64,000 nucleotides of DNA from Deltaproteobacteria bacterium. GTDB taxonomy: Bacteria > Desulfobacterota > GWC2-55-46. Shown piece by piece: positions 2,231-46,174 of the stretch. The position numbers and the translations under genes are program-made. Within the stretch, counting starts at the first letter, position 1; each line of letters opens with the position of its first letter. The DNA lies in assembly GCA_016177845.1 (NCBI GenBank), contig JACOUO010000014.1, positions 187,005 to 251,004 on the forward strand, read 5' to 3'. The notes under the pieces are model-generated. The model had not been told where the DNA came from and did no database searches. It saw nothing but the letters and a program-made list of their open reading frames with translations.

Positions 2231-3613
2231 TTATAAAGTTACTTCATCCCCGTTTTGGGGCCTGTGTATCTTGAATCCGTATTGCTTCTGTATCAACTCT
2301 CCAAGCTTGTCAGCTGCTTCGTCCTCTCCGTGCACAAGGAATATCTCCGGGGAGTTGGTGAAGGCGGAAAGCCATCCTATAAGCTCTTCCTGCCCTGCGT
2401 GGGCTGAAAAGCCGTTTATGGTGTAAACGGAAGACCTTACGACGACCTCTTCACCCAGCACGCTCACTGATTTTGCCCCGTCAACTATCTTTCTTCCAAG
2501 GGTGTTCTGTGCCTGATAGCCTACGAAGATGATGCTGCATTCAGACCTCCAGAGGTTGTGCTTGAGATGGTGCTTTATCCTGCCGCCTTCGCACATACCG
2601 CTTCCGGCAATCACGATGCAGCCTGAGCGGAGTTTATTGAGCTTCATCGATTCCTCAGGCGTGCGCACGAAGTGCAGTCTGACGGTAGAGTCGGAATTTT
2701 TTGTGGTGAAGTACTTTGTCGCTTCCTCATCAAAACATTCGGGGTGGGAAACATAGATTTTTGTGACCTCTTCTGCAAGAGGGCTGTCAAGATAGACATC
2801 TATCCTGTAAAGCCTGCCCTCCCTTACAAGACCGTTGAGGATGTAGAGCAGGTCCTGCGTCCTGCCCACGGCGAAAGACGGGATATAGACATTTCCGCCT
2901 TTTTTAAAGGTCATCTTTATGGCGGCGACAAGCTCATCAATCGATTCTTTTAAGGGCTTGTGCGTCCTGTTGCCGTAAGTGGACTCCATTATCACATAAT
3001 CAGCGTCATCCGGCATTGACGGGTCTTTTATTATAGGATTGCCTTTTTTACCGATATCGCCAGAAAATATTATCTTTTTTTCCTTTTCGCTGTCCTGGAA
3101 CCACAGCTCAAGGGATGCGGAGCCAAGGATATGGCCGGCATCCACAAACCTGTACTTAACCCCGCTTCCAAGGTGAAAGACCTTATTGTATTGCTTTACA
3201 TCAAACTGGGGCAGTACATTTTCAACATCCTCTCCTGTATAGAGAGGCTCCACAGGCGCAAGCCCTGAGCGCATGCTCTTCCTTGTGTTCCACTCTGCGT
3301 CAGATTCCTGTATGCTTGCTGAATCGTATAACATCGGCTCAAGCAGGTCCCTTGTGGCAGGGGTGCTGAAAATCGTGCCCTTGAAGCCCTCTTTCATCAA
3401 TTTTGGGAGCAGTCCCGAATGGTCTATGTGTGCATGCGTTACGAAGATGAAATCGATCTCCGAGGGCACGAACGGGAAGTTGTTCCTGTTCATCTCATTG
3501 GAATTGTTGCCCTGGTGCATGCCGCATTCCACAAGGATTTTAAGCTTGTTTATCTCAAGATAATAACATGAGCCGGTAACAGTGCTTGCGCCGCCTACGA
3601 ATTTCAGTTTCAA
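2231..3613 (-). CDS. MBL-fold beta-CASP ribonuclease (RNase J / CPSF73-like RNA-metabolising metallo-beta-lactamase)
   Basis: HAHIDHSGLLP metal-binding motif, the beta-lactamase fold and a beta-CASP C-terminal region. The likely start is the TTG at 3613, preceded by AAGGAG and giving MKLKFVGG. An in-frame ATG at 3661 has no RBS. Confidence 0.8.
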   Translation of the reverse strand: MKLKFVGGASTVTGSCYYLEINKLKILVECGMHQGNNSNEMNRNNFPFVPSEIDFIFVTHAHIDHSGLLPKLMKEGFKGTIFSTPATRDLLEPMLYDSASIQESDAEWNTRKSMRSGLAPVEPLYTGEDVENVLPQFDVKQYNKVFHLGSGVKYRFVDAGHILGSASLELWFQDSEKEKKIIFSGDIGKKGNPIIKDPSMPDDADYVIMESTYGNRTHKPLKESIDELVAAIKMTFKKGGNVYIPSFAVGRTQDLLYILNGLVREGRLYRIDVYLDSPLAEEVTKIYVSHPECFDEEATKYFTTKNSDSTVRLHFVRTPEESMKLNKLRSGCIVIAGSGMCEGGRIKHHLKHNLWRSECSIIFVGYQAQNTLGRKIVDGAKSVSVLGEEVVVRSSVYTINGFSAHAGQEELIGWLSAFTNSPEIFLVHGEDEAADKLGELIQKQYGFKIHRPQNGDEVTL

Positions 3614-8312: not shown

Positions 8313-8758
8313 GGGCAGTCGTGCAAAGGGTTAAAAGAGCAGAGGTCAGGGTGGATGATAGGATAGTGGGGGCTGTCTCAAAAGGCTTTCTTGTCTATCT
8401 TGGGGTTGAGAAAGGAGACAGCTTATCTGACCTTGAATATATCTCAACAAAGCTTGAGAACCTGAGGGTGTTTGAGGACTCAAACGGCAAGATGAATCTT
8501 GACCTCAAAGAGGCAGAAGGAGAGCTTCTGATAGTCTCTCAGTTTACGCTTGCCGGAGATGTAAGAAAAGGAAGACGGCCATCTTTTGATAAGGCTGAGG
8601 CGCCCGAAAGGGCAAAAGAGCTTTATGAAGCGATTATAAATAATCTTAGAGGCAAGGGCTTTAAAGTGGAAAAAGGGGAATTTCAGGCTCACATGGAAGT
8701 GGAGAGTATAAATGACGGGCCTGTGACCTTGTTGCTGGACAGCAGGAAGGTTTTTTAG
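8309..8758 (+). CDS. dtd: D-aminoacyl-tRNA deacylase
   Basis: 149 aa. MRAVVQRV ... SQFTLAGD Dtd signature. Translationally coupled to the upstream gene. Confidence 0.9.
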   Translation: MRAVVQRVKRAEVRVDDRIVGAVSKGFLVYLGVEKGDSLSDLEYISTKLENLRVFEDSNGKMNLDLKEAEGELLIVSQFTLAGDVRKGRRPSFDKAEAPERAKELYEAIINNLRGKGFKVEKGEFQAHMEVESINDGPVTLLLDSRKVF

Positions 8759-8759
8759 G

Positions 8760-9735
8760 GTCTGATTTATATAACCCCTCACCCCAGCCCTCTCCATAGG
8801 TCTGAAATCAACTAACACCCCTAATTAAACCGTCATTCCCGAATGTCTTAATCGGGAATCCGGTATTTAGAGTAATTGTAGGGCGCGGGCTATGCCTGCC
8901 GTGGTGCTAATTTTCTTTTGCGAACAGCGGGTTCGCTCCTCGGGCGTTGGACTCTGTTCGCTGTCGAGTTCGTTCGCTAATAGATACTGACGCTCGCTCT
9001 CGCCCTCCTTCTAATCAAGCCGTCATTCCCGAATGTCTCTATCGGGAATCCAGTATTAAAGATTTTGGACTGTTCCCTTTCATTGGGAAAATACCAAAGT
9101 TCGTCATTGTGAGTCAGTGCCTTTTTTACTTTTGCGAACAGCGGGTTCGCTCCTCGGGGCATTGGACTCTGTTCGCTGTCAGGCTCATTCGCAATAGATT
9201 TCGAACTCTCTCGCTCTCTCCCTAATCAAGCCGTCATTCCCGAATGTCTCTATCGAACTGCGGGTTCGCTCCTCGGGGCATTGGACTCTGCTCGCTGTCA
9301 GGCTCATTCGCAAAAAATACCGATACCCGCTCTCTCCCTCTCCTTTATGCTCTCTGCGCAATGCCCCTTGGTGTGGTGTTTTAAAACAAAATTCAAAACA
9401 GAACAGAAAAAGAATTTTTTTTATTCTTTGTTTTTTAAAAACCCCGAGGGCGCAAATGGCGAAGCATCCCCTAAGGGAGGCAGGGCGAGCGAGCCGAGGC
9501 TGCGGGAGCGCAAGCGACTTAAGAGGCGAAGCAAGCGGATTGGGGAGGAGCGGGATGGCGAGCCATTCGCCCGAAAAAGCCCGGCAGGGCGTTAAAGTTA
9601 AAACAGCACTGAGCTGGCTGTAATACTCTTCTCAATCTGAGCTTTTCTGCTGCGCAATGCCCTTGGTGTATTTTAAAAAAACAAAAATACCAAAAAAATT
9701 CACTCCTGATGGTGAATATGGAGAGAGGGAGAATC
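8760..9735. repeat. mosaic intergenic repeat block (~1 kb)
   Basis: Three copies each of module A (cctaatcaagccgtcattcccgaatgtctctatcgggaatccagtatt; 8818-8870, 9013-9062, 9222-9256) and module B (ttttgcgaacagcgggttcgctcctcggggcattggactctgttcgctgtc; 8914-, 9122-, 9255-). One full ~185-bp module C (9435-9625). Module F (ctctgcgcaatgccccttggtgtggtgttttaaaaca; 9350- and 9645-). ORF-track entries here are artefacts of the repeats. Confidence 0.85.
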
Positions 9736-9757
9736 TCACTGCGGGATTAAAACTATT

Positions 9758-10417
9758 CTATTTGGAGCCTGCCTTAATTTTCTTATAGATGAACGGAATG
9801 AGGGAGACTATGACCACAAGCGCGAGCCCAACAATAAACTCCTTTGAGATTTTTCCTTTAAATACATCGAGTATGGAACTTGAAAATATGACAAAGGGGA
9901 CTACCGCAGGGGCTATGAATATAAAAGTTGCCAGGGCGTAATGGCTGAACTTGATATTTGTGAGCCCGAATGCGTAATTAAGGATATTAAACGGGAAAAG
10001 GGGTATCAGCCTTGTAAAAGCTACTATCTTCCAGCCCTGCTCTTCTACTTTTTTATCAAGCTCTTTTAACCTCCCCCCCTTCATTTTCGCCTCCACCCAA
10101 TCCCTGCCAAGGTATCTCGCAATCAGAAATGCAAGGGATGCCCCAAGTGTCGCTCCTATCATCACATAGACAGTGCCCCACAAAGGCCCGAAAAGAATAC
10201 CCCCCGCGACAGTAATAGGAAGGCCCGGCAGCATCAGCCCTGTTCCCATAATGTAAATGAGTATGTAGACTATCGGGCCCCAGCCGCCAAAATTATCTAT
10301 CCACCCCCTGAGCCTATCCTGGTCAAGATATTGCTCAAGCCCAAGCGCCCTGACCGAGATGAATGCCGCGAGTATGAATATTATGAATATCAGGAATTTT
10401 ATCGAGCCGCTTCGCAT
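9758..10417 (-). CDS. DedA/TVP38/TMEM64 family membrane protein
   Basis: Polytopic membrane protein with the DedA signature region (GxxxFGPLWG..., RLIPLFPFN). TAATG overlap with the upstream oxidoreductase gene. Confidence 0.8.
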   Translation of the reverse strand: MRSGSIKFLIFIIFILAAFISVRALGLEQYLDQDRLRGWIDNFGGWGPIVYILIYIMGTGLMLPGLPITVAGGILFGPLWGTVYVMIGATLGASLAFLIARYLGRDWVEAKMKGGRLKELDKKVEEQGWKIVAFTRLIPLFPFNILNYAFGLTNIKFSHYALATFIFIAPAVVPFVIFSSSILDVFKGKISKEFIVGLALVVIVSLIPFIYKKIKAGSK

Positions 10418-13699: not shown

Positions 13700-14300
13700 T
13701 TAATTTTACACTTCTTTTATTCTGCTTTTGTACCCTGTCTTGTTTTAAAAACATCACATGACATAGTCCCCGTCAAAAGACCGCTCGCCCTGCCTTCCTT
13801 AGGGGATGTTCGCATTTGCGCCCTCGGGGTTTTGTAAAAACAAAATACAAAAAAGATTGCCTCGTCGCTTCGCTCCTCGCAATAAATATATTTTTCTTCC
13901 CATCTTGTAGGAGAATTTAAAAAACAGATTGCTTCGCTCCGCTCGCAATGACAATATTGGTAATCGTCATTCCCGCGAAAGCGGGAATCCAGTATTTCAG
14001 TTTCTGGATTCCCGATAGAGACATTCGGGAATGACGGCTTGATTAGGAGGAGGGCGAGAGCGAGCGTTAGTATCTATTAGCGAACGAACTCGATAGCCGG
14101 GAGCCAATGAACCGAGGAGCAAGCCCAGCGAAAAGTAAATAAGCAAACCGTTCTTTTAAGATTATATTTGGTGGGCACAGCCCACCCTACAAATAAAACT
14201 ATTTTCGCTTTTTGGCGCTTGTGGGAAGGGGAGGGGGATTTTAAAGGCTCAAAATCGCAAATTCCACCCTGTTTAAGCCCCCATTTCCTCAAACCATACC
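13700..14300. repeat. mosaic intergenic repeat block
   Basis: Module C in reverse orientation (13790-13860). Modules A in inverted tandem (gtcattcccgcgaaagcgggaatccagtatttcagtttctggattcccgatagagacattcgggaatgac; 13962-14035). Module B reverse complement (14055-14150). Module D ggtgggcacagcccaccctacaa (14170-14195). Confidence 0.85.
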
Positions 14301-23559: not shown

Positions 23560-24230
23560 TTCCTCCGCATTCATCCGCTAACGGATGCGCTAAGGTCATT
23601 TTAATAAAGAATTCGGAATATTTCCATATAAAAAATAAGGGGATAGGAAAAAGGTTGTGAAATCCACCCTTCTTCCTAATCAAGCCGTCATTCCCGAATG
23701 TCTCTATCGGGAATCCAGTATTAAAGATAGGAGCGAAGCGCCAAGGCAATCTTTCTTGTGTTTTGCCTTACAAAACCCCGAGGGCGCAAATGGCGAAGCA
23801 TCCCCTAAGGGAGGAAGGGTGAGCGAGCCGAGGCTGCGGGAGCGTAAGCGACCTAAGAAATGAACCGAGCGGATTGGGGAGGCGCGGGGTGGCGAGCCAT
23901 TCGCCCAAAAGAGCCCGGCAGGGCGTTAAAGTTAAAACAGCACTGAGCTGACTACATATTTTCTTTCCCTATTCTTGTCTTTAAAGCCTGCCGCTGTGCT
24001 TTTCTACTTTTGCGCGCCGGGCCTGCTCCTCGTGGCATTGGCTCCGTTCGCTGTCGCGTTTGTTCGCTAATAGATACTGAAGCCCGCTCTCTCCCGCTCC
24101 CTTATGCTCATTTCGCAACGCCCCTTGGCGTGGTGTTTTAAACAAGACAAAATAGAAATACAAATACTTCCCCCTCCCTTGATGGGTGGGGATAAAGGGG
24201 AGGGTGATTTAAGTACCAAAAAACAAAAAA
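23560..24230. repeat. mosaic intergenic repeat block
   Basis: Module A (23678-23730), full module C (23765-23955), module B (24000-24090), module F (24105-24160) and module E cccctcccttgatgggtggggataaaggggagggtga (24170-24215). Confidence 0.85.
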
Positions 24231-24257
24231 GCCCCTGAACCTTTCAGGTTCAGGGGC
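24216..24257 (-). terminator. rho-independent terminator of the isc operon
   Basis: On the minus strand: GCCCCTGAACCtgaaAGGTTCAGGGGC followed by ttttttgtttttt. Confidence 0.8.
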
Positions 24258-24277
24258 TTTGAATTAAACTTCAATAT

Positions 24278-28466: not shown

Positions 28467-28493
28467 ATATTAATTAAAATATAAAATCAAAAA

Positions 28494-28525
28494 CGGCTGT
28501 CGAGAAATTCGGCAGCCGTTTTTTG
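28494..28525 (+). terminator. rho-independent terminator
   Basis: CGGCTGTCGagaaattCGGCAGCCG followed by ttttttg. Confidence 0.75.
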
Positions 28526-28529: not shown

Positions 28530-29135
28530 GGACGCCCTGAGCCGTCATTGCGAACGGAGCGAAGCAATCCTTTTATTTATTCCCCTCACTTCTACCCTCT
28601 CAAACTGTCCAATAGATTGCTTCGGGCTTAACGCCCTCGCAATGACGACATCTCACCCGTTTCCCGAATGTCACTATCGGGAATTTACTTTTAAAATACT
28701 GGATTCCCGCTTTCGCGGGAATGACAATTCTAAACCTGTCATTGCGAGCGGAGCGAAGCAATCCTTTTATTTATTCCCCTCACTTCTACCCTCTCAAACT
28801 GTCAAATAGATTGCTTCGGGCTTAACGCCCTTGCAATGACGACATCTCACCCGTCATTCCCGAATGTCACTATCGGGAATTGACAATTCTAAACCAGTCA
28901 TTGCGAGCGAAGCGAGGCAATCCTGTTATTTATTCCCCTTACTTCTACCCTCTCAAACTGTCAAATAGATTGCTTCGGGCTTAACGCCCTTGCAATGACG
29001 ACATCTCACCCGTCATTCCCGAATGTCACTATCGGGAATCTACTTTTAAAATACTGGATTCCCGCTTTCGCGGGAATGACAATTCTAAACCAGTCATTGC
29101 GAGCGAAGCGAGGCAATCTGTTTTATTTACTCCCG
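28530..29135. repeat. tandem array (~3.3 copies) of a ~160-200-bp composite structured repeat
   Basis: The unit gtcattgcgagcgaagcgaagcaatcc..(70 nt)..gattgcttcgggcttaacgccctcgcaatgacgac contains nested long-range inverted repeats (gtcattgcgag/ctcgcaatgac and cgaagcaatc/gattgcttcg). Each unit is followed by module-A-type hairpins (cattcccgaatgtcactatcgggaat and ggattcccgctttcgcgggaatgac). Unit starts are near 28537, 28737 and 28897. Confidence 0.85.
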
Positions 29136-29136
29136 C

Positions 29137-29667
29137 CTACGCCTCTCTCCCTGTCTGTATCTTAAACTCCCTCCAGACATAATCGAGGCCTGAATACACG
29201 GTAACAACCGCAGTTACGAGTGTAAGCCAGTCAAGGCCGAAGTTGAAGGGGATAAGCATGGCGTAGATTACTGTGGTTATCTGGAGGGCTGTAGTGAGCT
29301 TGCCGAAGAAAGACGGGGAGATGATGACCTTTTTACCTGCGCCTTTTAATGTGAAAAAGCCGGTAAGGATAACGGCATCCCTTACGATTACAGGAACGCA
29401 CAGCCATATCGGGAGAAACCCTTTAAGAGTAAGCGAGAGGTAAGCGGTAACAAGCAGGAGCTTGTCCGCGAACGGGTCCATGTGGGCGCCGAATTCCGTT
29501 CTCTGGTTGTAAGTGCGTGCGATAAAGCCGTCTATGCCGTCTGTAATGCCTGCGATGGCGAAGACGATTGTTGCATAGAAGAGCTGGTTTTCAAGGACGA
29601 GCAGCAGGAATACCGGAACAAGCAGTATCCTGAATATAGTCAATATGTTTGGAACATTCAAGACCAT
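29137..29667 (-). CDS. pgsA: CDP-diacylglycerol--glycerol-3-phosphate 3-phosphatidyltransferase
   Basis: CDP-alcohol phosphatidyltransferase motif DGxDGxxAR...G...DxxxD (DGIDGFIARTYNQRTEFGAHMDPFADK) and multiple TM helices. Confidence 0.85.
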   Translation of the reverse strand: MVLNVPNILTIFRILLVPVFLLLVLENQLFYATIVFAIAGITDGIDGFIARTYNQRTEFGAHMDPFADKLLLVTAYLSLTLKGFLPIWLCVPVIVRDAVILTGFFTLKGAGKKVIISPSFFGKLTTALQITTVIYAMLIPFNFGLDWLTLVTAVVTVYSGLDYVWREFKIQTGREA

Positions 29668-31914: not shown

Positions 31915-31960
31915 AGAGTTTATTTTTGGTGGGCGCAGCCCACCCTACAAGTTTATATTT
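31915..31960. repeat. solitary module-D palindromic repeat
   Basis: tttggtgggcgcagcccaccctacaagtttatatt. The same module occurs at 2113-2130 and 14170-14195. Confidence 0.7.
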
Positions 31961-35340: not shown

Positions 35341-37077
35341 TTACAGGTTTTTAAGGCGTTCCACTTCCCTTTCGGTCAGCATCCTGTACTGGCCGGGCTC
35401 AAGGCTTCCAAGCTTTATTCCAGCGAACTCAACTCTCTTAAGCTTTATGACAGGGTGTCCTATTGCCTGACACATCCTTTTGACAAGCCTGTTCCTGCCC
35501 TCTATTACGGTAATCTCTATCCAGGAGTTCTCCTGAGTTTCCTTTACAAACCTTGCCCTTGCAGGCAGAGTCCTTCCGTCCTCAAGGTAAACCCCGCGTT
35601 CCAGCTTCTCAATGTCTTCCCTCTTAGGCACATCCTTGACCTTTACAAGGTACTTTTTAGGGACTTTGAAGTTCGGGTGGATGAGCTTGTTTGAAAGCTC
35701 GCCGTCATTGGTAAGAAGTATTACCCCTTCGGCATCATAGTCCAGCCTGCCAATGGGATAAACCCTTTCCTTTGTATTGACAAGGTCGGTCACTACCTGC
35801 CTGTGAAGCGGGTCAGTAACCGCGCTGATGCAATCCTTTGGCTTATTTAAAAGTATATAGACCTTTGGCCCTTTGAACGAAATGAGCTTTCCGTCAACCG
35901 CTATCCTGTCCTTGAACGGGTCTGCTTTTGCCCCGACCTCAGTAACAGTATGGTTGTTTACGGTTACTCTGCCCTGAGTTACAAGCTCCTCTGCCTTTCT
36001 TCTGGATGTGATACCGGCAGCGGAGATGATCTTTTGAAGCCTTTCCTCATGCCCTTCCTCCAGATGGCGTGCAGGCTGTGGGGTTTTAGACCTTCTCGGC
36101 CTTGCTGGCCTCTGGGGCCTTTCCGACCACTTGGGCTTATCTGAACCCTCAGGTCTTTCAGGCCTTTCAGTCCCTTCAAAACGCTTCGGTCTTTCAGGCC
36201 TTTCTGACCTCTCAAACCTCTTAGGCCTTTCGCTTCTTTCCGATCTCTCAGGCCTCTCAAACCTTTGCGGCCTTTCGGGCCTTTCGGTTCTATTTGGCTT
36301 GTCAGTTCCTTCAAAACGCTTCGGTCTTACAGGCCTTTCCGACCTCTCAAACCTCTTAGGCCTTTCGCTTCTTTCAGATCTCTCAGGTCTCTCAAACCTT
36401 TGCGGCCTTTCCCGTCTTTCGGTTCTCTCGGATGACGACCAATCAAACTTTTTCTTTATCTGGTCTGTCCTCTCCCTCGTCTCCGATTCCTTCCTCGGGT
36501 ATCTCCTCGGAGCGTCCTGTGAGGCTCTCTCGTCCTTCTTCCAAGGCTTCTTCCTCAGTTCCTTCTGTGAGGTCTTCCCCTCCGGCCTCCAGACCAGAGT
36601 CCTCTCCCTCGTCTCCGATTCCTTCTTCGGGTATCTCTTCGCAGTGTCCTGTGAGGTCCTCTTCTCCCTGTTCCAGGATTGGTTCTTCTCCGAGTCCCTC
36701 CGGGTAGTCCTCTCCTCCGGCTTCCAGGACTGAGTCCCCTCCCTCGTCTCCGAGTTCCTCCTCGGATATCTCTTCGGAGCTTCCTCTGAGGGGTTCTCCT
36801 CCCTCTTCTTCCAAGGCTGGCTCCTGATGTTCTTCTTCATATCCATCCGGGAAGTCTTCTCCTCCGGCCTCCAGGACTGAGTCTTCTCCCTCGTCTCTGA
36901 TTGCCTCCTGGGACGGCCTTCCCTGTTCGGACGACCTTCCGTTCTCGGACGGTCCTCCCTCCTGTTCCTGTTCTCCTGCGCCCTCTTCTGATTCGGGCGG
37001 GTTTTGGGCGGCATTTTCTTCCTCCATTTTCTGTAAATCTTTAAGGCTCGGCAGGCACGAGAGGTCTTTAAGATCAA
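35341..37077 (-). CDS. rluB: RluB/RsuA-family pseudouridine synthase with an S4 domain and a long Arg/Glu-rich low-complexity N-terminal extension (start unresolved)
   Basis: The core (from about 36070 downward) has the S4 domain (ERLQKIISAAGITSRRKAEELV) and the pseudouridine synthase catalytic region (GRLDYDAEGVILLTNDG). There is no ATG, GTG or TTG in frame between the scpB stop (36443) and the S4 domain. The frame is open upstream to 37077 through the GA-rich repeats, in the +1 frame relative to scpB. Confidence 0.6.
   Translation of the reverse strand: MILKTSRACRALKIYRKWRKKMPPKTRPNQKRAQENRNRREDRPRTEGRPNREGRPRRQSETREKTQSWRPEEKTSRMDMKKNIRSQPWKKREENPSEEAPKRYPRRNSETREGTQSWKPEERTTRRDSEKNQSWNREKRTSQDTAKRYPKKESETRERTLVWRPEGKTSQKELRKKPWKKDERASQDAPRRYPRKESETRERTDQIKKKFDWSSSERTERRERPQRFERPERSERSERPKRFERSERPVRPKRFEGTDKPNRTERPERPQRFERPERSERSERPKRFERSERPERPKRFEGTERPERPEGSDKPKWSERPQRPARPRRSKTPQPARHLEEGHEERLQKIISAAGITSRRKAEELVTQGRVTVNNHTVTEVGAKADPFKDRIAVDGKLISFKGPKVYILLNKPKDCISAVTDPLHRQVVTDLVNTKERVYPIGRLDYDAEGVILLTNDGELSNKLIHPNFKVPKKYLVKVKDVPKREDIEKLERGVYLEDGRTLPARARFVKETQENSWIEITVIEGRNRLVKRMCQAIGHPVIKLKRVEFAGIKLGSLEPGQYRMLTEREVERLKNL
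36130..36900. repeat. GA-rich coding tandem repeats (2 x ~123 bp at 36130-36430; ~3 x 130-147 bp at 36460-36900)
   Basis: Direct reading of the sequence. The repeats encode ~44-49-aa acidic repeats in the ScpB tail (EGEDSVLEAGGED...EEIPEEGIGD) and R/E/P repeats (ERPERSERSERPKRFERSERP) in the rluB frame. Confidence 0.8.
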
Positions 37078-37546
37078 ATGTTTCCAGGAATTCCCTTGTA
37101 GTGCCGTAAACCACTGGCCTGCCGGGGACTTCCCTTCTGCCTACTATTTTTATGAATCTCTTCTCCATAAGGGTAGCAAGGACTCCACCTGAGTCCACGC
37201 CTCTTATGGCTTCAAGCTCACCCCTTGTAAGGGGCTGCTTGTATGCAATGATAGCAAGGCTTTCCATTGCCGCCTTGCTTATCTTCTGTGCGCCTATTTT
37301 AAAGAACTTCCGCAGCCACGGCGCGAACTCCGGGTTTGTCCTGAACTGGTAACCCCCGGCAACCTCTTCTATCAAAAAGCCACCGCTTCTGGCTTTATAG
37401 TCCTCAATCAGTTCCGCTAACGCTTCCTTTATTATTTGCCTGTCCTCGCCTTCAAGCACATTGGCGAGCTTCTCAAAGCTGATTGCGCTGTCCGCGGCAA
37501 AGATAAGGGATTCCAATACAGGCTTAAGACTGATTTTATCCAGCAT
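36443..37546 (-). CDS. scpB: segregation and condensation protein B with a ~170-aa acidic repetitive C-terminal tail
   Basis: Two ScpB winged-helix domains (LESLIFAADSAISFEKLANVL...; GELEAIRGVDSGGVLATLMEKRFI) followed by Glu/Gly/Asp-rich tandem repeats. Confidence 0.85.
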   Translation of the reverse strand: MLDKISLKPVLESLIFAADSAISFEKLANVLEGEDRQIIKEALAELIEDYKARSGGFLIEEVAGGYQFRTNPEFAPWLRKFFKIGAQKISKAAMESLAIIAYKQPLTRGELEAIRGVDSGGVLATLMEKRFIKIVGRREVPGRPVVYGTTREFLETFDLKDLSCLPSLKDLQKMEEENAAQNPPESEEGAGEQEQEGGPSENGRSSEQGRPSQEAIRDEGEDSVLEAGGEDFPDGYEEEHQEPALEEEGGEPLRGSSEEISEEELGDEGGDSVLEAGGEDYPEGLGEEPILEQGEEDLTGHCEEIPEEGIGDEGEDSGLEAGGEDLTEGTEEEALEEGRESLTGRSEEIPEEGIGDEGEDRPDKEKV

Positions 37547-40179: not shown

Positions 40180-40740
40180 CTCCCCTCCCTTGATGGGAGG
40201 GGATAAAGGGGAGGGTGAAAGTGAAAAAACCTCACTCCAGCCCTCTCTCTCGTCAGTCGTCATTCCCGAATGTCTCTATCGGGAATCTACTTAAAAATAC
40301 TGGATTCCCGCTTTCGCGGGAATGACAGATTATGGAATAATCTATCTGTGAGAACAGAGCGAAGCAATCTATTTTCTTCACCTCCTGCGCCATCGGGGGT
40401 TTTAAGAACAAAAACTAAATTCTTTTATTCTGATTTTAGATCTTGTCTTGTTTTTAAAACACCACACCAAGGGGCATTGCGTAGAGAGCATAAAGGAGAG
40501 GAAGAGAGCGGGAATTAGTATCTGTTAGCGAACGGAGTCCAATGCCCCGAGGAGCGAACCCGCTGTTCGCAAAAGTAAAATAGCAGAAGCGTTAATAGGC
40601 AGAGGAGTTGATGAGTTTGCTTCTCGCAACTGGCCAAGCAGTCGTCATTGCGTACTTGAAGTAATCTGTCTTTGCTGGGAGGAAATAAAGGGGAGGGTGA
40701 TGCAGTCAGTGCAGGGATTTCAGCCCTGAGCAACCCGCTT
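40180..40740. repeat. mosaic intergenic repeat block
   Basis: Module E at 40185-40230 and 40670-40710. Module A pair at 40255-40330 (gtcattcccgaatgtctctatcgggaatctacttaaaaatactggattcccgctttcgcgggaatgac). Module F and module B in reverse complement at 40455-40585. Confidence 0.85.
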
Positions 40741-43383
40741 TTATTTAGCCTTCTTCTCAGCCTTCCTGTTTTTTTTCCATTTTACGTAAGTCTTTACAAA
40801 CTCCTCTTCGTCTTCCTTTGTATGTATCTCCCCATCAAGCCGCTTTTTAAAAAGCGTTCTGAATATCTCTCCCATGATAGGGCCTTCTTCAATCCCAAGC
40901 TTTTTTAAGTCCGCTCCCTTTAGCATTGTCTCAGTGTATCTCAGCTTCGCTATGAAAATTGAAAGCGCCTTTTTCACATTCTCATTCTGAGTACGGGCAA
41001 GGAGGTAGATATGGATTTCAAGGGGCAGAGGCTTGAGCAGTTCATAGATATCGCTGTTCTTTTTTACCATCCCTGAATTCAGGCGGTTCAATGCCTTGAT
41101 GCCGTCAATCCTTGAATTAAGGACGAAGAGCCTCTTTTTACCTGATATCAGAAGCCTTTTTACAAGCGAGCTTAGCTCGGATTCCGTCAGCGGGTCAGTT
41201 AGCGCGAGGAACAAGACAAGCCATTCCTCGACAGGCTCTCCCGTAAACAGGAGCTTGTACCATGTAAGCGCCTCTTTTGCCCTTTCAAAGAAAAGCTCAC
41301 GGTCAATATCCCATGTGATGCTTTTGTGAATGAGCTTAAGGAGGCCAAGCTCATTGAGTTTCCTGATGGATTTGACGGCAGTCTCTTCTTCAAGGATATT
41401 TTTAAGCTCTTCAAACAGCCTTGCGCCTGAAAGCTGTCTGAAAGAATCAAGCTTTACAGAGTTTTTGATAAGGTTTAAGGTATGCTTTCCTATCCTGAAA
41501 TCAAACTTCTCGGAGAACCTTACTGCCCTGAGCATCCTTGTGGGGTCTTCGACAAAGCTTAAATTATGAAGCACCCGTATGGTCTTTTCCTTTAAATCCT
41601 TCTGCGCCCCGAAAAAGTCTATAAGCTCTCCGAAGCCTTCGGGGTTAAGGGCTATCGCAAGGGTATTTATGATGAAATCGCGCCTGTAGAGGTCGAGCTT
41701 CAGTGACGACTGCTCAATGGTAGGCAGCGCGCCCGGCTTTTCATAGTATTCGAGGCGTGCCGTGGCGATATCTATCTTAAACCCGTCCGGGAATATGAGT
41801 ACAGCTGTCCTGAACCTGTGGTGCGGGCGTACCCGAAGTTCCCTTCTCTTGGCAAACTCATGGGCAAATACTATCCCGTCCCCGCCTTCTATCACTATAT
41901 CAATATCGAGGTTATCCCTTCTTAATATTAAATCCCTTACAAATCCGCCTACGGCGTATGCCTTACAGCCAAGCTCTTCGGCAATCTCCCCGGCCTCTTT
42001 GAGTATCTCGATTACCCATTCAGGCAGCCTCTCCTTCATGTGCTTTGAGAGGTATCTTACTTTTTTCGGCGCTCCTTCTGTGCTTTCCCTCAACTCATCC
42101 TGCAATAGCTTGAGCAAATCCGTTCTTGTGATTACGCCGACAACCTTTTTATCTCTTATGACAGGCAGCAGCCTCTGGCCGTGCCCGATTACCTTTTCCC
42201 GTATCTCATCAATGGATGTGTCCGCATTTACCCATTCGACCTCTGTTGTCATGTAATCGCTTACAGGGGCTGAGCCAAGCCCGTGATAGACTGCCTTATC
42301 GCAGACCTGCCTTGTGATTACCCCGTGTATCTCGCTGTCCTCTACAACGGGAGCGGCGTTTATATTGTACCTTCTCATAAGGTCAACCGCCTGCCTGAGC
42401 GTTGTAGCGGCAGGCACAGTTATGGGAGGATAAGACATTATGTCGGAGGCGTTTCTCCTTGGGGCGATTGTCTTTCGTAAGATAGAGAGTAGCTTTTCCT
42501 TTGCCTCGATAAGGGTTACTCCCTTAAGGGTGGCTGATGCGGCGTTAGGGTGCCCTCCGCCTCCGATTGCGCGCGCCACCTTGCCAACATCTACTTCAGG
42601 GGTCTTTGAGCGCGCTATCAGGTGCACCCTGTCCTCAGAGTCCACAAGCAGGAAAAGGCAGTTCATGCCCTCGATGTCCCGTATCTTATGCGCAAGGATG
42701 GAAATATCACCCACATATCTTTCAATATATCCTTCAGCTATTACAACTTCCACTCCTCCGATGATGTACTTTGTCTCTGAGTGGAGAAAATCATTGAGCA
42801 GTGAGACTTCCTCAGGGGTAAGCTCTTTTCTTAAAAGGTCCGATACAACGGTTAAGTTCGCGCCGTTTGAAAGGAGAAATGCCGCGGCCTCGTAGTCTTT
42901 TACTGTTGTTCCCGGATAGGTTAGAAAACCGGTATCTTCATATATGCCTGCCATCAGTATCGTTGCTTCATCCGGGGTAAGGCTTAACCCTCTGTCTCTG
43001 ATAACAAGCGTAAGCACGGAGGTACACGCCCCGTAAGGCGCAATGACCTCAACTGAGCCCTTCACCACATCGCCTGTAGAGGGATGGTGGTCGTAGATGT
43101 GGATATCGATATCTTTTTTGCAGACCGCTTCGGCAAAGGGGCCGATTCTGCCAGGATGTCTTGCGTCAACGAGAATGAGCCTCTTGATTTTTTTGATGTC
43201 TATATCCTTGATGCGGTCAAATTTAAAAGGGAGTTTCACGCTTCCGCTGTCAATTGCCTCCTTAAGTGTCTTTTCAAGAGAGCCTGAAAAAACGAGACGG
43301 GCCTGCGGATAAAGCTTTTTTGCGGCAATCATGGACGCGAATGTATCAAAATCCGCGTTTGTATGAGATGTAATGACTTCCAT
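40741..43383 (-). CDS. multidomain protein: DHH-DHHA1 phosphoesterase + tandem CBS + CCA/poly(A) polymerase-type nucleotidyltransferase + HD domain
   Basis: N-terminal DHH motifs (HTNADFDTFASM ... DHH), two CBS domains, the polymerase-beta-type head GGFVRDLILRRDNLDIDIV with the tRNA-NT core, and a C-terminal HD-like region. 880 aa. Confidence 0.8.
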   Translation of the reverse strand: MEVITSHTNADFDTFASMIAAKKLYPQARLVFSGSLEKTLKEAIDSGSVKLPFKFDRIKDIDIKKIKRLILVDARHPGRIGPFAEAVCKKDIDIHIYDHHPSTGDVVKGSVEVIAPYGACTSVLTLVIRDRGLSLTPDEATILMAGIYEDTGFLTYPGTTVKDYEAAAFLLSNGANLTVVSDLLRKELTPEEVSLLNDFLHSETKYIIGGVEVVIAEGYIERYVGDISILAHKIRDIEGMNCLFLLVDSEDRVHLIARSKTPEVDVGKVARAIGGGGHPNAASATLKGVTLIEAKEKLLSILRKTIAPRRNASDIMSYPPITVPAATTLRQAVDLMRRYNINAAPVVEDSEIHGVITRQVCDKAVYHGLGSAPVSDYMTTEVEWVNADTSIDEIREKVIGHGQRLLPVIRDKKVVGVITRTDLLKLLQDELRESTEGAPKKVRYLSKHMKERLPEWVIEILKEAGEIAEELGCKAYAVGGFVRDLILRRDNLDIDIVIEGGDGIVFAHEFAKRRELRVRPHHRFRTAVLIFPDGFKIDIATARLEYYEKPGALPTIEQSSLKLDLYRRDFIINTLAIALNPEGFGELIDFFGAQKDLKEKTIRVLHNLSFVEDPTRMLRAVRFSEKFDFRIGKHTLNLIKNSVKLDSFRQLSGARLFEELKNILEEETAVKSIRKLNELGLLKLIHKSITWDIDRELFFERAKEALTWYKLLFTGEPVEEWLVLFLALTDPLTESELSSLVKRLLISGKKRLFVLNSRIDGIKALNRLNSGMVKKNSDIYELLKPLPLEIHIYLLARTQNENVKKALSIFIAKLRYTETMLKGADLKKLGIEEGPIMGEIFRTLFKKRLDGEIHTKEDEEEFVKTYVKWKKNRKAEKKAK

Positions 43384-43496
43384 AAATGGATATTAGCATA
43401 CTTATGAAATTGTTACAAAGTATTAGGATATATAGATTTTTTTTGTTACAATTGAATTTATATTTTTTTTGAATATCAAAGTGTTGGTTCTTAAAA

Positions 43497-44366
43497 ATGA
43501 GTATGAAATCTGAATCCATTACAATTAATTCTTTTAATGAATATATTGACATTGTTAATCGGTCAATGGGGAATATTTGTTTATTCCGGGGGCAAGTAGA
43601 AGATTTAGAATTACTTCCAAAAATAGCAAGACCTGAATGTATCGGTCTTTTTCAAAACCAAAGATTTATAGAGTCTTGGAAAAAAACAATTCCGGCTTTG
43701 CCGTCTAAAGATCTAAGTAACTTATTAAATGACGAAGAGCTTCCGATAACTAAACCAACTAAAGAAATGAAAAAATATCAGAAAGATTTTCTGTTATTTG
43801 AAATGAAAATGTTTTCAGAATTCTGCAGAGCATCAATTCCATATTTAAATGGTAAAATACCAAATGGTAAGTGGGAATGGCTCACATTAGCACAACACCA
43901 TGGTTTGCCAACTCGATTATTAGATTGGACGAAAAACCCCTTAATAGCATTATGGTTTGCAGTGCAGGACTCTTCAAAAATGTCTGAAGCTGAACAAAAA
44001 AGGTCTTCAACTTATGGTGTTGTTTGGCAATTCAATCCCAAAAATTCAGATTTTTTAAACACGTTGAAAGATAAAACTCCATTTTCATTAAAAAGAACAA
44101 AAATTTTTGAGCCAAATCATATATCACAGAGAATTGTCGCTCAATCCGCTTGTTTTACAGCACATAAATACTTAAATGATCGTGGTTTTATTTCTCTTAT
44201 TAGAAACAAATTCTATAAAGATAGATTATTTAAAATTATTATACCTTATAATAGATTTCCTATTTTAAAAAAGAGCCTTTCACATTTCGGCATAAATTCT
44301 GCTACACTTTTCGCCGATTTAGACAATCTTTGTAGAAATATTATTGAAGTGTACACTCCTGAATAG
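43497..44366 (+). CDS. FRG-domain protein, in an AT-rich island
   Basis: Contains the FRG-domain pattern GNICLFRGQ...LLP plus downstream WEWLTLAQHHGLPTRLLDWT (the Phe-Arg-Gly motif region). Local GC is about 32-35% versus ~48% in the flanks. Confidence 0.7.
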   Translation: MSMKSESITINSFNEYIDIVNRSMGNICLFRGQVEDLELLPKIARPECIGLFQNQRFIESWKKTIPALPSKDLSNLLNDEELPITKPTKEMKKYQKDFLLFEMKMFSEFCRASIPYLNGKIPNGKWEWLTLAQHHGLPTRLLDWTKNPLIALWFAVQDSSKMSEAEQKRSSTYGVVWQFNPKNSDFLNTLKDKTPFSLKRTKIFEPNHISQRIVAQSACFTAHKYLNDRGFISLIRNKFYKDRLFKIIIPYNRFPILKKSLSHFGINSATLFADLDNLCRNIIEVYTPE

Positions 44367-44374
44367 CCTCTAAT

Positions 44375-44620
44375 CTAATCTTTTTGCGAACTGGGTTCGC
44401 TCCTCGGGGTATTGGCTCCCGGCTACCGAGTTCGTTCTCTAATCAAGCCGTCATTCCCGACTGTCTCTATCGGGAATCGAGTATTGTAGTATTTTAGTAT
44501 TGTAGAGTGGGCTGTGCCACCAAATGTTCTTATAAAAGAGCGTTGTTGCTAAAAACAAGACAGAATACAAAATATTTCCCTCCTTTATCGGGATGATAAA
44601 GGGAAGGGTGAAAAGTGAAA
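44375..44620. repeat. mosaic intergenic repeat block
   Basis: Module B (44385-44440), module A (44440-44480), a module-D-like palindrome (44500-44520) and module E (44575-44615). Confidence 0.8.
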
Positions 44621-44640
44621 ACTGCCTCTCTCCCGCTGAA

Positions 44641-44676
44641 ATAAAAAAAGGGCAGACAGCTTTCGCTGTCTGCCCT
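44641..44676 (-). terminator. rho-independent terminator at the 3' end of the cytochrome locus
   Basis: On the minus strand: GGGCAGACAGCgaaaGCTGTCTGCCC followed by tttttttat. Confidence 0.75.
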
Positions 44677-44690
44677 TTAAACGGTTCAAG

Positions 44691-45548
44691 TTATTTTGAT
44701 ATGGTCTTTACTTCCGCTTTTGTCTTATCCGCTGCCTTTTCATCCTTCGGCTCCTCTATCTTGGGAGCAGGCTGTGAATGGCATCTGAAGCAGTCATCGA
44801 GCGGGAAGGCCACTTTAACATGGCATGTTCCGCAGTACTGGCCTGAGATAATCTTTATCATGTTCATCTCAGGGTTCCCGCCCTTCTGCTGCTTGAATAT
44901 GGAGGTGTGACAGGTCTCACAGTTCATCTGCTCTGTGTGCGCTTTATGGGGGAAGAGCACATCAGGCGGATGTGGCGTGAACTTTGTAACAGGGATAACT
45001 ACATCCATATCAAGGGCGTCAAGCGTTCCTTTGCCATCAGGCGAGGCCGCAGGTTTTATCTTACCTTCCCTTACAGCCTTTACCCAGTCGACCTTGTTGC
45101 CGAAGTGGTCTTTTGGAAGGTCCTTTAAGGAATCGTCAATATTGCTGTTCCCGGCGTTCTGCGCTCCGTATGAGTGGCAGCGTTTGCAGTTGCTGACAGG
45201 GAATGATGTTGTGCCGTTATGGCATGATCCGCAGTATTTGCCTGATTCTATATCAGCCTGTGTAACCCCGGTGGCATTTGGCTTCATCGCGAAGCCAAGG
45301 TCAGTATGGCAGGCCTTGCAGGTGTATTTGGCCCTGTGTGCCCAATGAGGAAAGAGCACAGGCTCAATTGTTTTTGAACTTCTGGTGTTTTTATCCATCA
45401 GCACAGTACCATGTGAGCCGGGCGCCTTGACTTTTTTCAGGTCAGTTTCCCATGTATTACCCTGCGCGTTTACTCCCTGGTAAAAGAAAAGGCCTGTGAC
45501 AAAGGCCGTTGATAATATGGCCAGACGCTTGAAAATTTTACTACGCAC
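44691..45548 (-). CDS. hexaheme c-type cytochrome: two tandem triheme cytochrome c7-like domains, membrane-anchored
   Basis: Six CxxCH motifs (CKACH, CGSCH, CKRCH, CETCH, CGTCH, CFRCH). Two c7-type FPHxAH motifs (LFPHWAHRAKYTCKACH, LFPHKAHTEQMNCETCH). GTG start at 45548 with a GGAGG RBS. An in-frame ATG at 45626 would overlap the upstream gene. Confidence 0.8.
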   Translation of the reverse strand: MRSKIFKRLAILSTAFVTGLFFYQGVNAQGNTWETDLKKVKAPGSHGTVLMDKNTRSSKTIEPVLFPHWAHRAKYTCKACHTDLGFAMKPNATGVTQADIESGKYCGSCHNGTTSFPVSNCKRCHSYGAQNAGNSNIDDSLKDLPKDHFGNKVDWVKAVREGKIKPAASPDGKGTLDALDMDVVIPVTKFTPHPPDVLFPHKAHTEQMNCETCHTSIFKQQKGGNPEMNMIKIISGQYCGTCHVKVAFPLDDCFRCHSQPAPKIEEPKDEKAADKTKAEVKTISK

Positions 45549-45598
45549 TTTAGACCTCCGTTTTAAAACTGACTTCAATTGACTCAATTGCTTTATTA

Positions 45599-46072
45599 TT
45601 AATAGCCGACATGGCATGAGGCGCATAATCTGAGGTAATCCACCCTTAACATCTTGGGATATCTGGACTTGTTGTGCGGGTCATGGCATGTATAGCAGAC
45701 CATCTCTCCGTCATCGGTTAAAGGCAGTTTAGCCGGAATTTTAATCTTGGGCATCTTGCCGATAGGATGCCTGGTAACCGGATGATTGGTCATATTCCCC
45801 GGATGGCATTTGGCGCATGTCGTAACCGGGTCAAAGCTGAGCCTCGGGGGCTCGCTCCCATGGCAGACTGAACAGGTGCTGTCATCATAATAGTTATGAG
45901 GATTGGCGCTTACCTGTCCCTCTTCTTCGGAATAAGCTGTTCCCGGATTTGTGATTCCGAGAACGGGCAAAAAGATAAGAAGTGCAAGAATAAGAATCGG
46001 GTTTATCAGGGCGCCTCTCCAATGGAACCGTTTTTTAAAAATTCTTTTACCTGAGGATTTATTCGGGTCCAT
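45599..46072 (-). CDS. tetraheme c-type cytochrome, N-terminal membrane anchor
   Basis: Four CxxCH motifs (CSVCH, CAKCH, CYTCHDPHN, CASCH) and a TM helix at residues ~20-40. Confidence 0.8.
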   Translation of the reverse strand: MDPNKSSGKRIFKKRFHWRGALINPILILALLIFLPVLGITNPGTAYSEEEGQVSANPHNYYDDSTCSVCHGSEPPRLSFDPVTTCAKCHPGNMTNHPVTRHPIGKMPKIKIPAKLPLTDDGEMVCYTCHDPHNKSRYPKMLRVDYLRLCASCHVGY

Positions 46073-46174
46073 GTCTTTATGCCGTCTTAAGTTTCAGGAA
46101 GTTTTTTAAGCTAAACTCCCGATTTTTTGAATTTGCCCGAAAAAAGTACGGGCGCCCCTTCTGACAGAGCGGTA

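Follow-up and report, generated by a model that had tools for sequence, protein, structure and literature searches.

Short hairpin-forming repeats fill nine intergenic regions in the 64-kb stretch analysed here (the window), and they raise a simple question: do they represent mobile elements, structured RNAs, small genes, debris, or a recognised class of palindromic repeat?

Nine arrays and their modules

Self-BLAST of the window recovers repeated DNA at 1846–2195, 8803–9619, 13712–14192, 23649–24224, 28544–29158, 31917–31950, 40182–40588, 44382–44550, and 53795–54573. These are the same nine intergenic regions listed in a preliminary description of the sequence, and they are filled, as that description held, with hairpin-forming modules in shuffled order and both orientations. 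Strictly repeated intergenic DNA amounts to ~4.2 kb (6.6% of the window) and the nine spacers that hold repeats sum to 6.3 kb, so the earlier estimate of 5 kb (8%) is about right. Arrays are present in three of the five convergent junctions and in six of the 52 other junctions (Fisher p = 0.024), but in only one of the six divergent gene pairs; of the preference for convergent or divergent operons that had been suggested, the convergent part stands and the divergent part does not.

Module A, a REP hairpin with a CGTC tag, occurs in three coexisting stem and loop flavours, A1 (~13 copies), A2 (5 copies) and A3 (~14 copies). In the core unit, a CGTC or TGTC tag that stays unpaired precedes a stem of 8 bp whose first bases are AT; the stem is closed by a loop and followed by a tail resembling CCA. 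A1 (8-bp stem ATTCCCGA/TCGGGAAT) shares tag, stem and tail with A2 (8-bp stem ATTCCCGC/GCGGGAAT) but has a loop of 9 nt where that of A2 is 4 nt. The outer stem of A3 is only 5 bp (ATTGC/GCAAT) and encloses an internal mini-hairpin; its tags are CGTC, TGTC or AGTC, and with standard DNA parameters it folds no better than shuffled sequence. Both forms of the stem-loop quoted previously are present, GTCATTCCCGAnnnnnnnnnTCGGGAAT in 11 copies and ATTCCCN8GGGAAT in five (0 expected for each), the second being matched by the A2 copies only (the A1 spacing is N13); folded as single-stranded DNA the two give z-scores of −3.8 and −5.5 relative to shuffled sequence. Window copies with the ATTCCCG stem carry a CGTC tag in ten instances and TGTC in six, and the tails are CCA (10), CTA (3), and a few others. 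Outward-tagged inverted pairs are formed by A1 and A2 (five pairs) and by A3 and A3b (three pairs). The loops of A2 and A3 fit GCGNNAGC/GCGNAGC, a DNA ‘mini-hairpin’ motif (PMC13037366), which points to structure at the DNA level.

Module D is the palindrome GGTGGGCACAGCCCACC, present as described with five to seven copies, several of them degenerate. It is a GTAG-tagged REP with a 7-bp stem and a 3-nt loop at 14167–14192, 31925–31950 and 44500–44518, and the remaining copies carry AAAG, GCAG or ATAG instead of GTAG. The hairpin of module E is CT-rich and has no tag. The other modules are fillers, including B (~96 nt), F (~50 nt), G (46 nt), and C (~178 nt), with B, C, and G recurring between tagged hairpins. 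There are three full copies of C (9438–9615, 23772–23949, and 54154–54314) and two fragments, the copies are 94–99% identical to their own consensus, and the imperfect long-range inverted repeat reported for this module is real.

Array composition and recombination

Array R1 (1846–2222) contains a 3′ fragment of C (−), A1 (−; 1933–1967), B (−; 1982–2076), H, a D with its tag decayed to AAAG (−; 2113–2131), a second A1 (−; 2135–2169) and a D-like element. Array R2 (8803–9680) lies between the convergent dtd (+) and a VTT-domain gene (−), and its modules are in the forward orientation. It begins with A1 (8830–8866), of the form CGTC-ATTCCCGA-(9-nt loop)-TCGGGAAT-CCG, followed by a GTAG-tagged, degenerate D-like element (TTGTAGGGCGCGGGCTATGCCTGCC; 8875–8905), B (8916–9007; ~96 nt), which is linked via CTAATCAAGC to a full-consensus A1 with a CCA tail (9020–9056), an A3 fragment (CGTCATTGTGAGTCAGTGCC; 9107–9126), and a second B (9130–9225); the D-like element and the A3 fragment were read from the sequence. 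To the right of these is a recombinant joint, where an A1 cut after its loop (9231–9255) is fused at a CG microhomology (9255) to a B that begins at position 6 of that module (9254–9343). The array continues with the ~50-nt filler F (TTTATGCTCTCTGCGCAATGCCCCTTGGTGTGGTGTTTTAAAA; 9344–9386), an AT-rich linker, C copy 1 (9438–9615), which is 178 nt long with its imperfect long-range inverted repeat and the sole intact ORF, and a fragment of F.

Array R3 (13712–14192) is composed of F/linker (−), a C fragment with the first 54 nt only (−; 13782–13833), two copies of A3 (−), one of them at 13927–13952, with the form (C/T/A)GTC-ATTGCGA-GCGGAGC-GAAGCAAT-C, A2 (+; 13965–13995) facing A1 (−; 14004–14037), B (−; 14050–14130), H, and D (−; 14167–14192; TTGTAG-GGTGGGC-TGT-GCCCACC-AAA). 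This A2 is exact to both the published NTS consensus and dRS3 (CGTCATTCCCGCGAAAGCGGGAATCCAG), and the A1 is its inverted partner, with tags outward and tails facing. Array R4 (23649–24224) has A1 (+; 23685–23721), an A3 remnant, C copy 2 (+; 23772–23949), a spacer, B (+; 24025–24100), F (+; 24114–24142), and E (+; 24171–24207), the hairpin CCCCTCCC-ttgat-GGGAGGGG, which has no tag and precedes ATAAAGGGGAGGGTGA.

Array R5 (28544–29124) is BIME-like, with 12 tagged hairpins of alternating orientation in 575 nt, and a 159-nt unit present about twice (A3, G, reversed A3b, A1, with or without reversed A2). A3, here with a GCGAAGC core, is at 28897–28922 (+) and also at 28544–28569, 28738–28763 and 29093–29118; A3b (GTC-ATTGCGA-GGGCgttaaGCCC-GAAGCAAT-C) is at 28615–28646 (−), 28809–28840 and 28968–28999; A1 is at 28851–28880 (+), 29010–29040 and, in degenerate form, 28661–28684. 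Two A2 copies (−), each with one mismatch to NTS, are at 28696–28725, with a TGTC tag, and 29051–29080. R6 is a solitary GTAG-tagged D (−; 31925–31950). Array R7 (40182–40700) contains E, A1 (+; 40258–40287) facing an A2 with one mismatch to NTS (−; 40297–40326), a degenerate A3, a fragment of the start of C (−), F (−), B (−; 40495–40574), an A3-like element, and E. R8 (44382–44611) is composed of a short B, A1 (+; 44448–44484), a GTAG-tagged D with a 1-nt deletion in its 3′ arm (+; 44500–44518), and E. Array R9 (53750–54611) is in a divergent gene pair and has E, D, B, A1 (+; 53956–53986) facing an A2 with one mismatch to NTS (−; 53997–54026), a degenerate A3, a CT-rich hairpin, C copy 3 (+; 54154–54314), B (+; 54368–54463), F (+; 54469–54519), A3 (+; 54535–54560), and E.

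The order of modules is that of a metagenome assembly, of which independent contigs reproduce only R8 and part of R7, and in it the shared block reads C-B-F in R4 and R9 and B-F-C in R2 and R7. The C module is also cut short at different points in different arrays. From these truncations, the A1–B fusion and the permuted block order we infer that the mosaic is recombinant in origin.

Relationship to known repeats and to Ssn nucleases

CGTC-REPs are defined by a CGTC, TGTC or CCTC tag, an 8–9-bp stem with A-T and T-A as its first pairs, a 4–5-nt loop (some families have other loops) and a CCA tail, and are mostly organised as inverted dimers; CGTC-1 in Neisseria has been equated with dRS3, and no transposase was found associated with CGTC repeats (PMC3733652). 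Module A is like CGTC-1 (Di Nocera, De Gregorio & Rocco 2013, PMC3733652) in its tag, 8-bp AT stem and CCA tail, in forming inverted dimers, in having no adjoining transposase, and in sharing a genome with GTAG REPs. The 4-nt loop of A2 is a further likeness, whereas A1 departs in its 9-nt loop with conserved sequence, and A3 in its 5-bp outer stem and internal mini-hairpin. The repeats here are heavily clustered, which is rare for CGTC repeats outside Neisseria and Wolbachia, and the host, together with most of the other A1 hosts (Nitrospirota, Elusimicrobiota, Atribacterota and Ignavibacteriota), lies outside the five phyla named for these repeats (PMC3733652).

A second comparison is with the NIMEs, in which dRS3, a 20-bp inverted repeat (ATTCCCNNNNNNNNGGGAAT), flanks RS repeats of 50–150 bp (Parkhill 2000, via Bentley 2007, PMC1797815), and whose arrays were described as Neisseria-specific (PMC1797815). 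A2 is exact to ATTCCCN8GGGAAT, with five matches to ATTCCCNNNNNNNNGGGAAT in the window compared to none expected, and here too hairpins alternate with filler families (~40–180 nt) in mosaic, recombinogenic-looking arrays. The departures are that most of the hairpins (A1 and A3) miss the strict N8 spacing, R5 is far denser with spacers of 10–45 nt, GTAG REPs and the CT-rich hairpin are mixed in, and the host is not Neisseria, the proteins of the window matching exactly those of an NCBI MAG named ‘Deltaproteobacteria bacterium’; the neighbouring genes are housekeeping genes, and none of the arrays was seen to be linked to surface-antigen genes. R5 is also similar to BIMEs, its hairpins being evenly spaced and alternating in orientation. 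Modules B, C, F, G and H have no copies elsewhere in the collections searched; B and C have no match in JGI metagenomes scanned with exact 24-mers and 23-mers, and the B-F-C block has no BLAST match among plasmids and phages. These five modules behave like genome-specific filler, and may be the equivalent of the ‘RS’ elements of NIMEs.

The nine regions are thus REP-type palindromic repeat clusters comparable to NIMEs and enterobacterial BIMEs, and module A, judged by its sequence, belongs to the CGTC-REP superfamily with dRS3/NTS and the ‘Ssn-related motifs’ (SRM). The preliminary description did not recognise that A falls in this published class, nor that D is a GTAG REP. Once recognised as CGTC and GTAG REPs, such repeats need not be mistaken in annotation for small proteins or new RNAs, and NIME-like arrays, formerly regarded as Neisseria-specific, are now seen in an uncultured environmental bacterium as well.

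The NTS consensus, the SRM pattern and the single-strand nuclease SsnA, a small enzyme that cuts the Neisseria dRS3/NTS repeats, were described by Chenal et al. 2025 (PMC11893778), who report as critical in NTS the three bases that precede the palindrome on its 5′ side and the C that directly follows it (PMC11893778). In this system the ssn gene encodes a single-domain GIY-YIG (cd10448) protein and usually has the motif on its flanks. A2 is an NTS, with one copy matching the consensus CGTCATTCCCGCGMAVGCGGGAATCYRG exactly and four having one mismatch, and the critical flanking bases are kept. The SRM search pattern has five matches in the window compared to a shuffle mean of 0.24 (~20-fold enriched), and both A1 and A3 fall outside it.

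The exact A1 28-mer is present at 72 loci in at least five phyla, including Nitrospirota, Elusimicrobiota, Syntrophus, Atribacterota and Ignavibacteriota, such that a single form of the hairpin, loop included, has the same sequence in several phyla; there are no matches in 2.9 million viral contigs. In 65 foreign A1 copies the conservation ends at the tag, hairpin and tail, and for 18 of the 65 a tagged partner in inverted orientation lies no more than 60 nt away. Among the modules, the 72 foreign loci hold only A1 and A2, and A3 was not found in them. Across the window and foreign loci, perfect hairpins are flanked most often by GTC...C (154 of 1487), a frame common to 24 different stems.

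An HMM made from 120 Ssn homologues detected no Ssn gene in the window at E ≤ 10; it matched only locus L029 and a Neisseria control. Pfam and NCBIfam searches of the ~40–47 window proteins identified housekeeping families, with five proteins having no match, and no transposase; two regex scans for GIY-YIG, RAYT or transposase motifs were empty, as was a stricter regex on the foreign loci. The search for a REP-type enzyme that had been proposed was in the right direction, although the known partner for A is the GIY-YIG nuclease Ssn rather than an IS200 or RAYT enzyme, and no IS200/IS605 TnpA or RAYT is encoded within the 64-kb window. With no Ssn, RAYT or transposase there, the link to Ssn therefore draws on published work and on the Ssn loci of other genomes. 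One such locus is N. gonorrhoeae ssnA, which we found by tblastn using a GIY-YIG sequence only as bait; the gene recovered is 96–98% identical to annotated Neisseria GIY-YIG proteins. Nine NTS copies are present at this locus within 3.2 kb in outward-tagged pairs, the same arrangement as in the A1/A2 and A3/A3b pairs of the window. TGTC-tagged hairpins with 8-bp stems also lie on either side of each of five environmental Ssn homologues, at distances of up to ~160 nt, and one of these loci also has A1 at a distance of 1.3 kb, the sole link between A1 and Ssn here.

We favour the interpretation, with a probability of about 0.7, that the regions are REP clusters acting as single-stranded DNA sites for Ssn, in arrays shuffled by recombination. 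The CGTC hairpins are candidate sites for a GIY-YIG Ssn whose gene presumably lies in another part of the genome. When single-stranded DNA arises, in replication, in repair or as incoming DNA, the tagged strand would fold, and a small single-domain GIY-YIG nuclease could bind the hairpin and nick a few nucleotides 5′ of the tag. Nicking may then shorten recombination tracts and modulate DNA exchange around the arrays, which would themselves grow, shrink and shuffle through homologous and microhomology-mediated recombination between the modules they have in common. To our knowledge, the biological role of Ssn has been examined only in Neisseria, in transformation. A point against the Ssn interpretation is that A1, taken as the commonest unit, has a 9-nt loop that is outside both the CGTC and SRM definitions. 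It is possible, but on balance rather doubtful, that A1 is the site of an uncharacterised Ssn specificity class or of another single-stranded DNA enzyme, and that C-B-F is a new non-autonomous element using CGTC clusters as landing pads; if both are true, the arrays would be a NIME-type system that evolved outside Neisseria. Ssn nucleases are under development as site-specific single-strand DNA cutters, which makes A1 and A3 candidates for new recognition sites, should their cognate enzymes be found.

Alternative explanations

The strongest alternative to Ssn-associated REP clusters, although an unlikely one, is that the units are REPIN- or MITE-like non-autonomous transposons, mobilised by a RAYT (Y1 HUH) in the case of D and by some other enzyme for the CGTC units or C-B-F. 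GTAG REPs have an unpaired GTAG beside a 5–13-bp stem with a 2–20-nt loop and are RAYT-associated (PMC3733652), and D has the typical tag and stem-loop. The inverted A1/A2 pairs look like REPIN doublets, blocks of several modules are repeated as units, also in permuted form, and C is similar to MITEs such as Correia elements in its length (178 nt), its imperfect terminal inverted repeats, and its several copies and fragments. However, the window lacks a transposase, CGTC repeats as a class have no associated one (PMC3733652), and D is a minor component. C has been proposed to be a MITE, but in spite of its imperfect inverted arms, no direct target-site duplication is seen on inspection flanking any of the three copies, no cognate IS was found, the truncations are variable, and neither B nor C is present in the other collections searched. 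Transposition may well account for D, yet it leaves the bulk of the arrays unexplained.

It seems improbable that the modules act as RNA, either as terminators, as stabilisers of mRNA 3′ ends or, for C especially, as small RNA genes. The enrichment of arrays between convergent genes is consistent with such a role, as is the report that REPs are mostly downstream of ORFs (PMC3733652), and two hairpin copies, both A2, match a terminator pattern. These two are the only ones, however; most of the hairpins have no T-run, and ordinary terminator-like hairpins with T-runs are read at 24228–24262, 28492–28525 and 44645–44680, beside three of the arrays, which argues against the general terminator role suggested previously. 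The A2 and A3 loops, moreover, fit a motif of DNA (PMC13037366), and R2 has no promoter-like site. The suggestion that C is a structured RNA is not supported either: its fold z-scores are +0.17 and +0.59 (both strands folded), no better than shuffled sequence, Rfam 15 has no matches in the whole window at the gathering threshold and only chance-level matches (E > 2) in the region 8700–9800, and the RNAalifold covariation term is 0.01, from three copies that give little power.

We regard it as very improbable that the mosaic is inert recombination debris or, in part, an artefact of short-read metagenome assembly. Truncated and fused modules do exist, and the repeats do confound assembly, as predicted: short-read contigs assembled independently from the same organism stop inside repeats at 2166 (L076, in the second A1 of R1), at 8803, and at 40556 (L001 and L002, in B of R7), and REP clusters explain the fragmented assemblies of this lineage. 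The tagged hairpins have nonetheless kept their stems, tags and tails, with one 28-mer retained in five phyla, and R8 is reproduced with 100% identity in the independent contig L001. Debris may account for the filler modules, but not for the hairpins. The short-read contigs extend 4.2 kb past the window, and there are no modules in the added DNA.

A mobile cassette for a small basic peptide, suggested for C by a single long ORF (9281–9595) spanning copy 1 and by what appeared to be a near-identical peptide in all three copies, is refuted for practical purposes, the likeness of the peptides being no more than that of near-identical DNA: there are in-frame stops in copies 2 and 3, copy 3 is frameshifted by an 8-nt deletion in its left arm, copies 1 and 2 differ at 13 nucleotides giving ten amino-acid changes in the 52 codons compared (2, 7 and 4 at codon positions 1, 2 and 3, with no third-position bias), a search of 5.8 billion proteins found no homologue of the ORF, and no gene is annotated there by NCBI, the flanking accession numbers leaving room for only one protein. 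One further part of the window, 36086–36968, is also repeated; it is a tandem repeat within a gene and is unrelated to the modules.

Tagged hairpins and private fillers

The repeats in this window belong to a known class, comprising CGTC-tagged (dRS3/NTS/SRM) and GTAG-tagged palindromic repeats (REPs) set in mosaics like the NIMEs of Neisseria and the BIMEs of enterobacteria, together with private filler segments. Self-BLAST of the window and a repeat finder recovered all nine of the intergenic repeat regions of the preliminary description (arrays R1–R9), and eleven consensus modules were mapped back onto the window for copy counts. The hairpins are A1 (~13 copies; CGTC-ATTCCCGA-9 nt-TCGGGAAT-CCA), A2 (5 copies; CGTC/TGTC-ATTCCCGC-GAAA-GCGGGAAT-CCAG), A3/A3b (~14 copies counting decayed ones; GTC-ATTGCGA...GAAGCAAT-C), D (5–7 copies; GGTGGGC-ACA-GCCCACC) and E (6 copies; CCCCTCCC-ttgat-GGGAGGGG-ATAAAGGGGAGGGTGA). 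The non-hairpin modules are B (96 nt, 10 copies), C (178 nt, three full copies and two fragments), F (~50 nt), G (46 nt) and H (38 nt). Hairpin patterns are found 11 and 5 times in the window, with none expected by chance in either case. As single-stranded DNA A1, A2, A3b, D and E fold far better than shuffled sequences; A3 and B show no such gain over shuffles.

Two superfamilies, one tagged GTAG and the other CGTC, account for the majority of REPs (Di Nocera et al. 2013; PMC3733652). The CGTC members combine an unpaired tag (CGTC or TGTC) with a stem of 8–9 bp, nearly always beginning with AT, a loop of 4–5 nt and a CCA tail; they occur mostly as inverted dimers with no transposase association, and CGTC-1 of Neisseria is dRS3 (PMC3733652). 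A 28-nt extension of dRS3, the NTS (CGTCATTCCCGCGMAVGCGGGAATCYRG), was described by Chenal et al. (2025; PMC11893778), who generalised it further to a degenerate Ssn-related motif (SRM). One A2 copy is an exact match to the Neisseria NTS and the other four have a single mismatch, and the SRM pattern has five matches in the window compared with 0.24 in shuffles. A1 and A2 have the tag and tail in common, as well as seven of their eight stem pairs, and at the eighth pair both bases are changed with pairing kept; A1 is nonetheless outside the SRM pattern because of its 9-nt loop. D reads TTGTAG-GGTGGGC-TGT-GCCCACC-AAA on the opposite strand and is, as judged from this sequence, a GTAG-tagged REP. 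All six E copies are on the + strand (24171–24207, 40182–40218, 40676–40700, 44578–44611, 53750–53786 and 54575–54611), and none has a GTAG or CGTC tag. E has three arms (CCCCTCCC, GGGAGGGG and GGGGAGGG), which would allow either of two hairpins to form, and a related CT-rich hairpin lies at 54073–54113.

The mini-hairpin DNA motifs GCGNNAGC and GCGNAGC, reported to be extraordinarily stable (PMC13037366), are matched by the loop of A2, GCGAAAGC, and in A3 by the cores GCGAAGC and GCGGAGC (13969–13988, 28897–28922 and other A2/A3 copies). This fit favours structure at the DNA level; standard folding parameters probably undervalue such motifs in A2 and A3, which may account for the poor A3 scores.

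The hairpins are not confined to the window, as the preliminary description had allowed they might be, and the A1 28-mer is present at 72 loci in a collection of species-representative genomes, in Nitrospirota, Elusimicrobiota, a Syntrophus, Atribacterota and Ignavibacteriota (taxonomy checked). In 65 foreign copies the conserved part is the tag, hairpin and tail (~34 nt) and extends no further, so A1 is a unit with defined ends and not the terminus-free debris that had been considered; for 18 of these copies, an inverted partner with a tag lies no more than 60 nt away. Among 1487 perfect hairpins in the window and these loci, which were picked for A1 but are unselected for other stems, the commonest flank is the GTC...C frame (154), shared by 24 different stems that nearly all start with AT. 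B and C were not found in the foreign A1 loci and have no match in JGI metagenomes or in plasmids and phages, and the longer modules appear private to this genome. Mildly new are the host lineage, the density of the arrays and their mixture of families, and the long-loop A1 variant, which is identical across phyla. Array layouts of this kind are described as essentially confined to Neisseria (PMC1797815), or to Neisseria and Wolbachia (PMC3733652).

Probable rearrangement of the mosaics and the nature of module C

The modules occur in permuted blocks: in R4 and R9 the order is C-spacer-B-F, in R2 and R7 it is B-F-linker-C. Module fragments are cut at varying points, and one A1 is joined to B at a CG microhomology. 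From their sequence, these arrangements look like the expected product of recombination between shared segments, which would have reshuffled the arrays; the C, B and F segments parallel the 'RS' filler of Neisseria NIMEs (PMC1797815). The long-range inverted arms reported for C are real, and in copy 3 a short pairing has seemingly re-formed after an 8-nt deletion, a single case. The proposal that C is a structured RNA fares poorly, with stability no greater than that of shuffled sequence on both strands, no match in Rfam and no covariation, the last being a weak test with three copies only. A peptide-coding cassette is effectively ruled out. Copies 2 and 3 each have a stop in the frame of the supposedly near-identical peptide, and the deletion falls in copy 3. 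Copies 1 and 2 differ at 13 positions, which alter 10 of 52 residues and do not favour the third codon position, and the ORF spanning C lacks any homologue in a set of 5.8 billion proteins.

A candidate Ssn nuclease

The best-supported explanation for the arrays is that the CGTC-tagged hairpins would be acted on by a putative Ssn nuclease, the gene for which would lie outside the window. SsnA is a 94-aa GIY-YIG protein that binds the hairpin solely as single-stranded DNA and cleaves a few nucleotides upstream of it, and the critical NTS elements are the C that follows the palindrome and the three bases on its 5′ side (PMC11893778). A search with an HMM of 120 homologues yields no Ssn gene in the window and one match in L029, an Elusimicrobia MAG locus. 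N. gonorrhoeae ssnA, recovered from a chromosome filed in a plasmid collection (PLSDB NZ_CP119140.1 and NZ_CP119142.1 are 2.17-Mb N. gonorrhoeae chromosomes filed as plasmids), encodes a product 96–98% identical to annotated Neisseria GIY-YIG proteins and has nine NTS copies in the surrounding 3.2 kb, in outward-tagged pairs. L029 and four further environmental loci have TGTC-tagged 8-bp hairpins within ~160 nt of the Ssn gene on both sides, and L029 also has A1 1.3 kb from the gene. The hairpins flanking these Ssn genes reproduce in other genomes the published association (PMC11893778); for this genome it is an inference. An ssnA homologue is present in 81% of genomes at the 200-SRM level (PMC11893778), and by rough extrapolation five strict SRMs per 64 kb would place a 3–4-Mb genome above that level.

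L029 has two instances of intragenic REPs: an inverted TGTC-tagged pair at 1954–2009 lies inside a histidine-kinase ORF, and the Ssn homologue takes its final codons and its stop from the hairpin at 2583–2606. In four related long contigs from sample ERZ25039515 (L079–L082) the Ssn homologue is at the same position (~3001–3320), with an alpha-2-macroglobulin gene on one side and a pbpC-like transglycosylase/transpeptidase gene on the other; this constant placement suggests a stably inherited, single-copy gene. The majority of the 240 Ssn homologues listed are known only from contigs of 0.5–3 kb, consistent with flanking repeats breaking assemblies.

Array placement, assembly and neighbouring genes

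Arrays occupy three of five convergent junctions, one of six divergent and five of 46 tandem (convergent versus the rest, p = 0.024). The suggested preference for convergent or divergent junctions thus holds for the convergent ones only, in agreement with the reported bias of REPs towards the 3′ sides of genes (PMC3733652). A general terminator role finds little support, with just two terminator-like hairpin copies in the window. Short-read contigs from independent assemblies of SRR12113419 and SRR12113422 match the window at 100% identity and end at 2166 (within an A1), 8803 (the start of R2) and 40556 (within a B), bearing out the expectation that the repeats confound assembly; these contigs independently confirm R8 and part of R7 only.

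Four proteins of the window match exactly those of a metagenome-assembled genome in NCBI under the name 'Deltaproteobacteria bacterium' (MBI1912179.1 and neighbours, on a contig of 255,564 bp). The window genes are ordinary chromosomal ones (dtd, mutL, trpS, scpA, miaA, iscS/iscU, rnc, mnmA, heme biosynthesis and multiheme cytochromes), and none of those in the 64 kb encodes a transposase, integrase or GIY-YIG protein. A cytochrome cd1 (NirS-like) gene at the left edge (1–1629) and a series of multiheme c-type cytochrome genes, with NHL and beta-propeller proteins encoded among them (44694–53513), suggest a lifestyle based on respiration or on extracellular electron transfer. GC content falls to 37–40% at 43000–45000, around an FRG-domain gene (43497–44363) adjoining R8, and this segment may be a small foreign insert. 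A GC-rich tandem repeat at 36086–36968 (periods of 36, 45 and 135 nt) is intragenic and unrelated to the intergenic modules. It lies in an ORF on the − strand (35344–37077), where it encodes a ~340-aa Arg/Glu/Pro/Ser-rich N-terminal extension (ERPERPQRFERPERSERSERPKRFE...) of an S4 and pseudouridine synthase (RluB-like) protein, and a second long ORF (36443–37546) overlaps the RluB-like ORF in a different frame.
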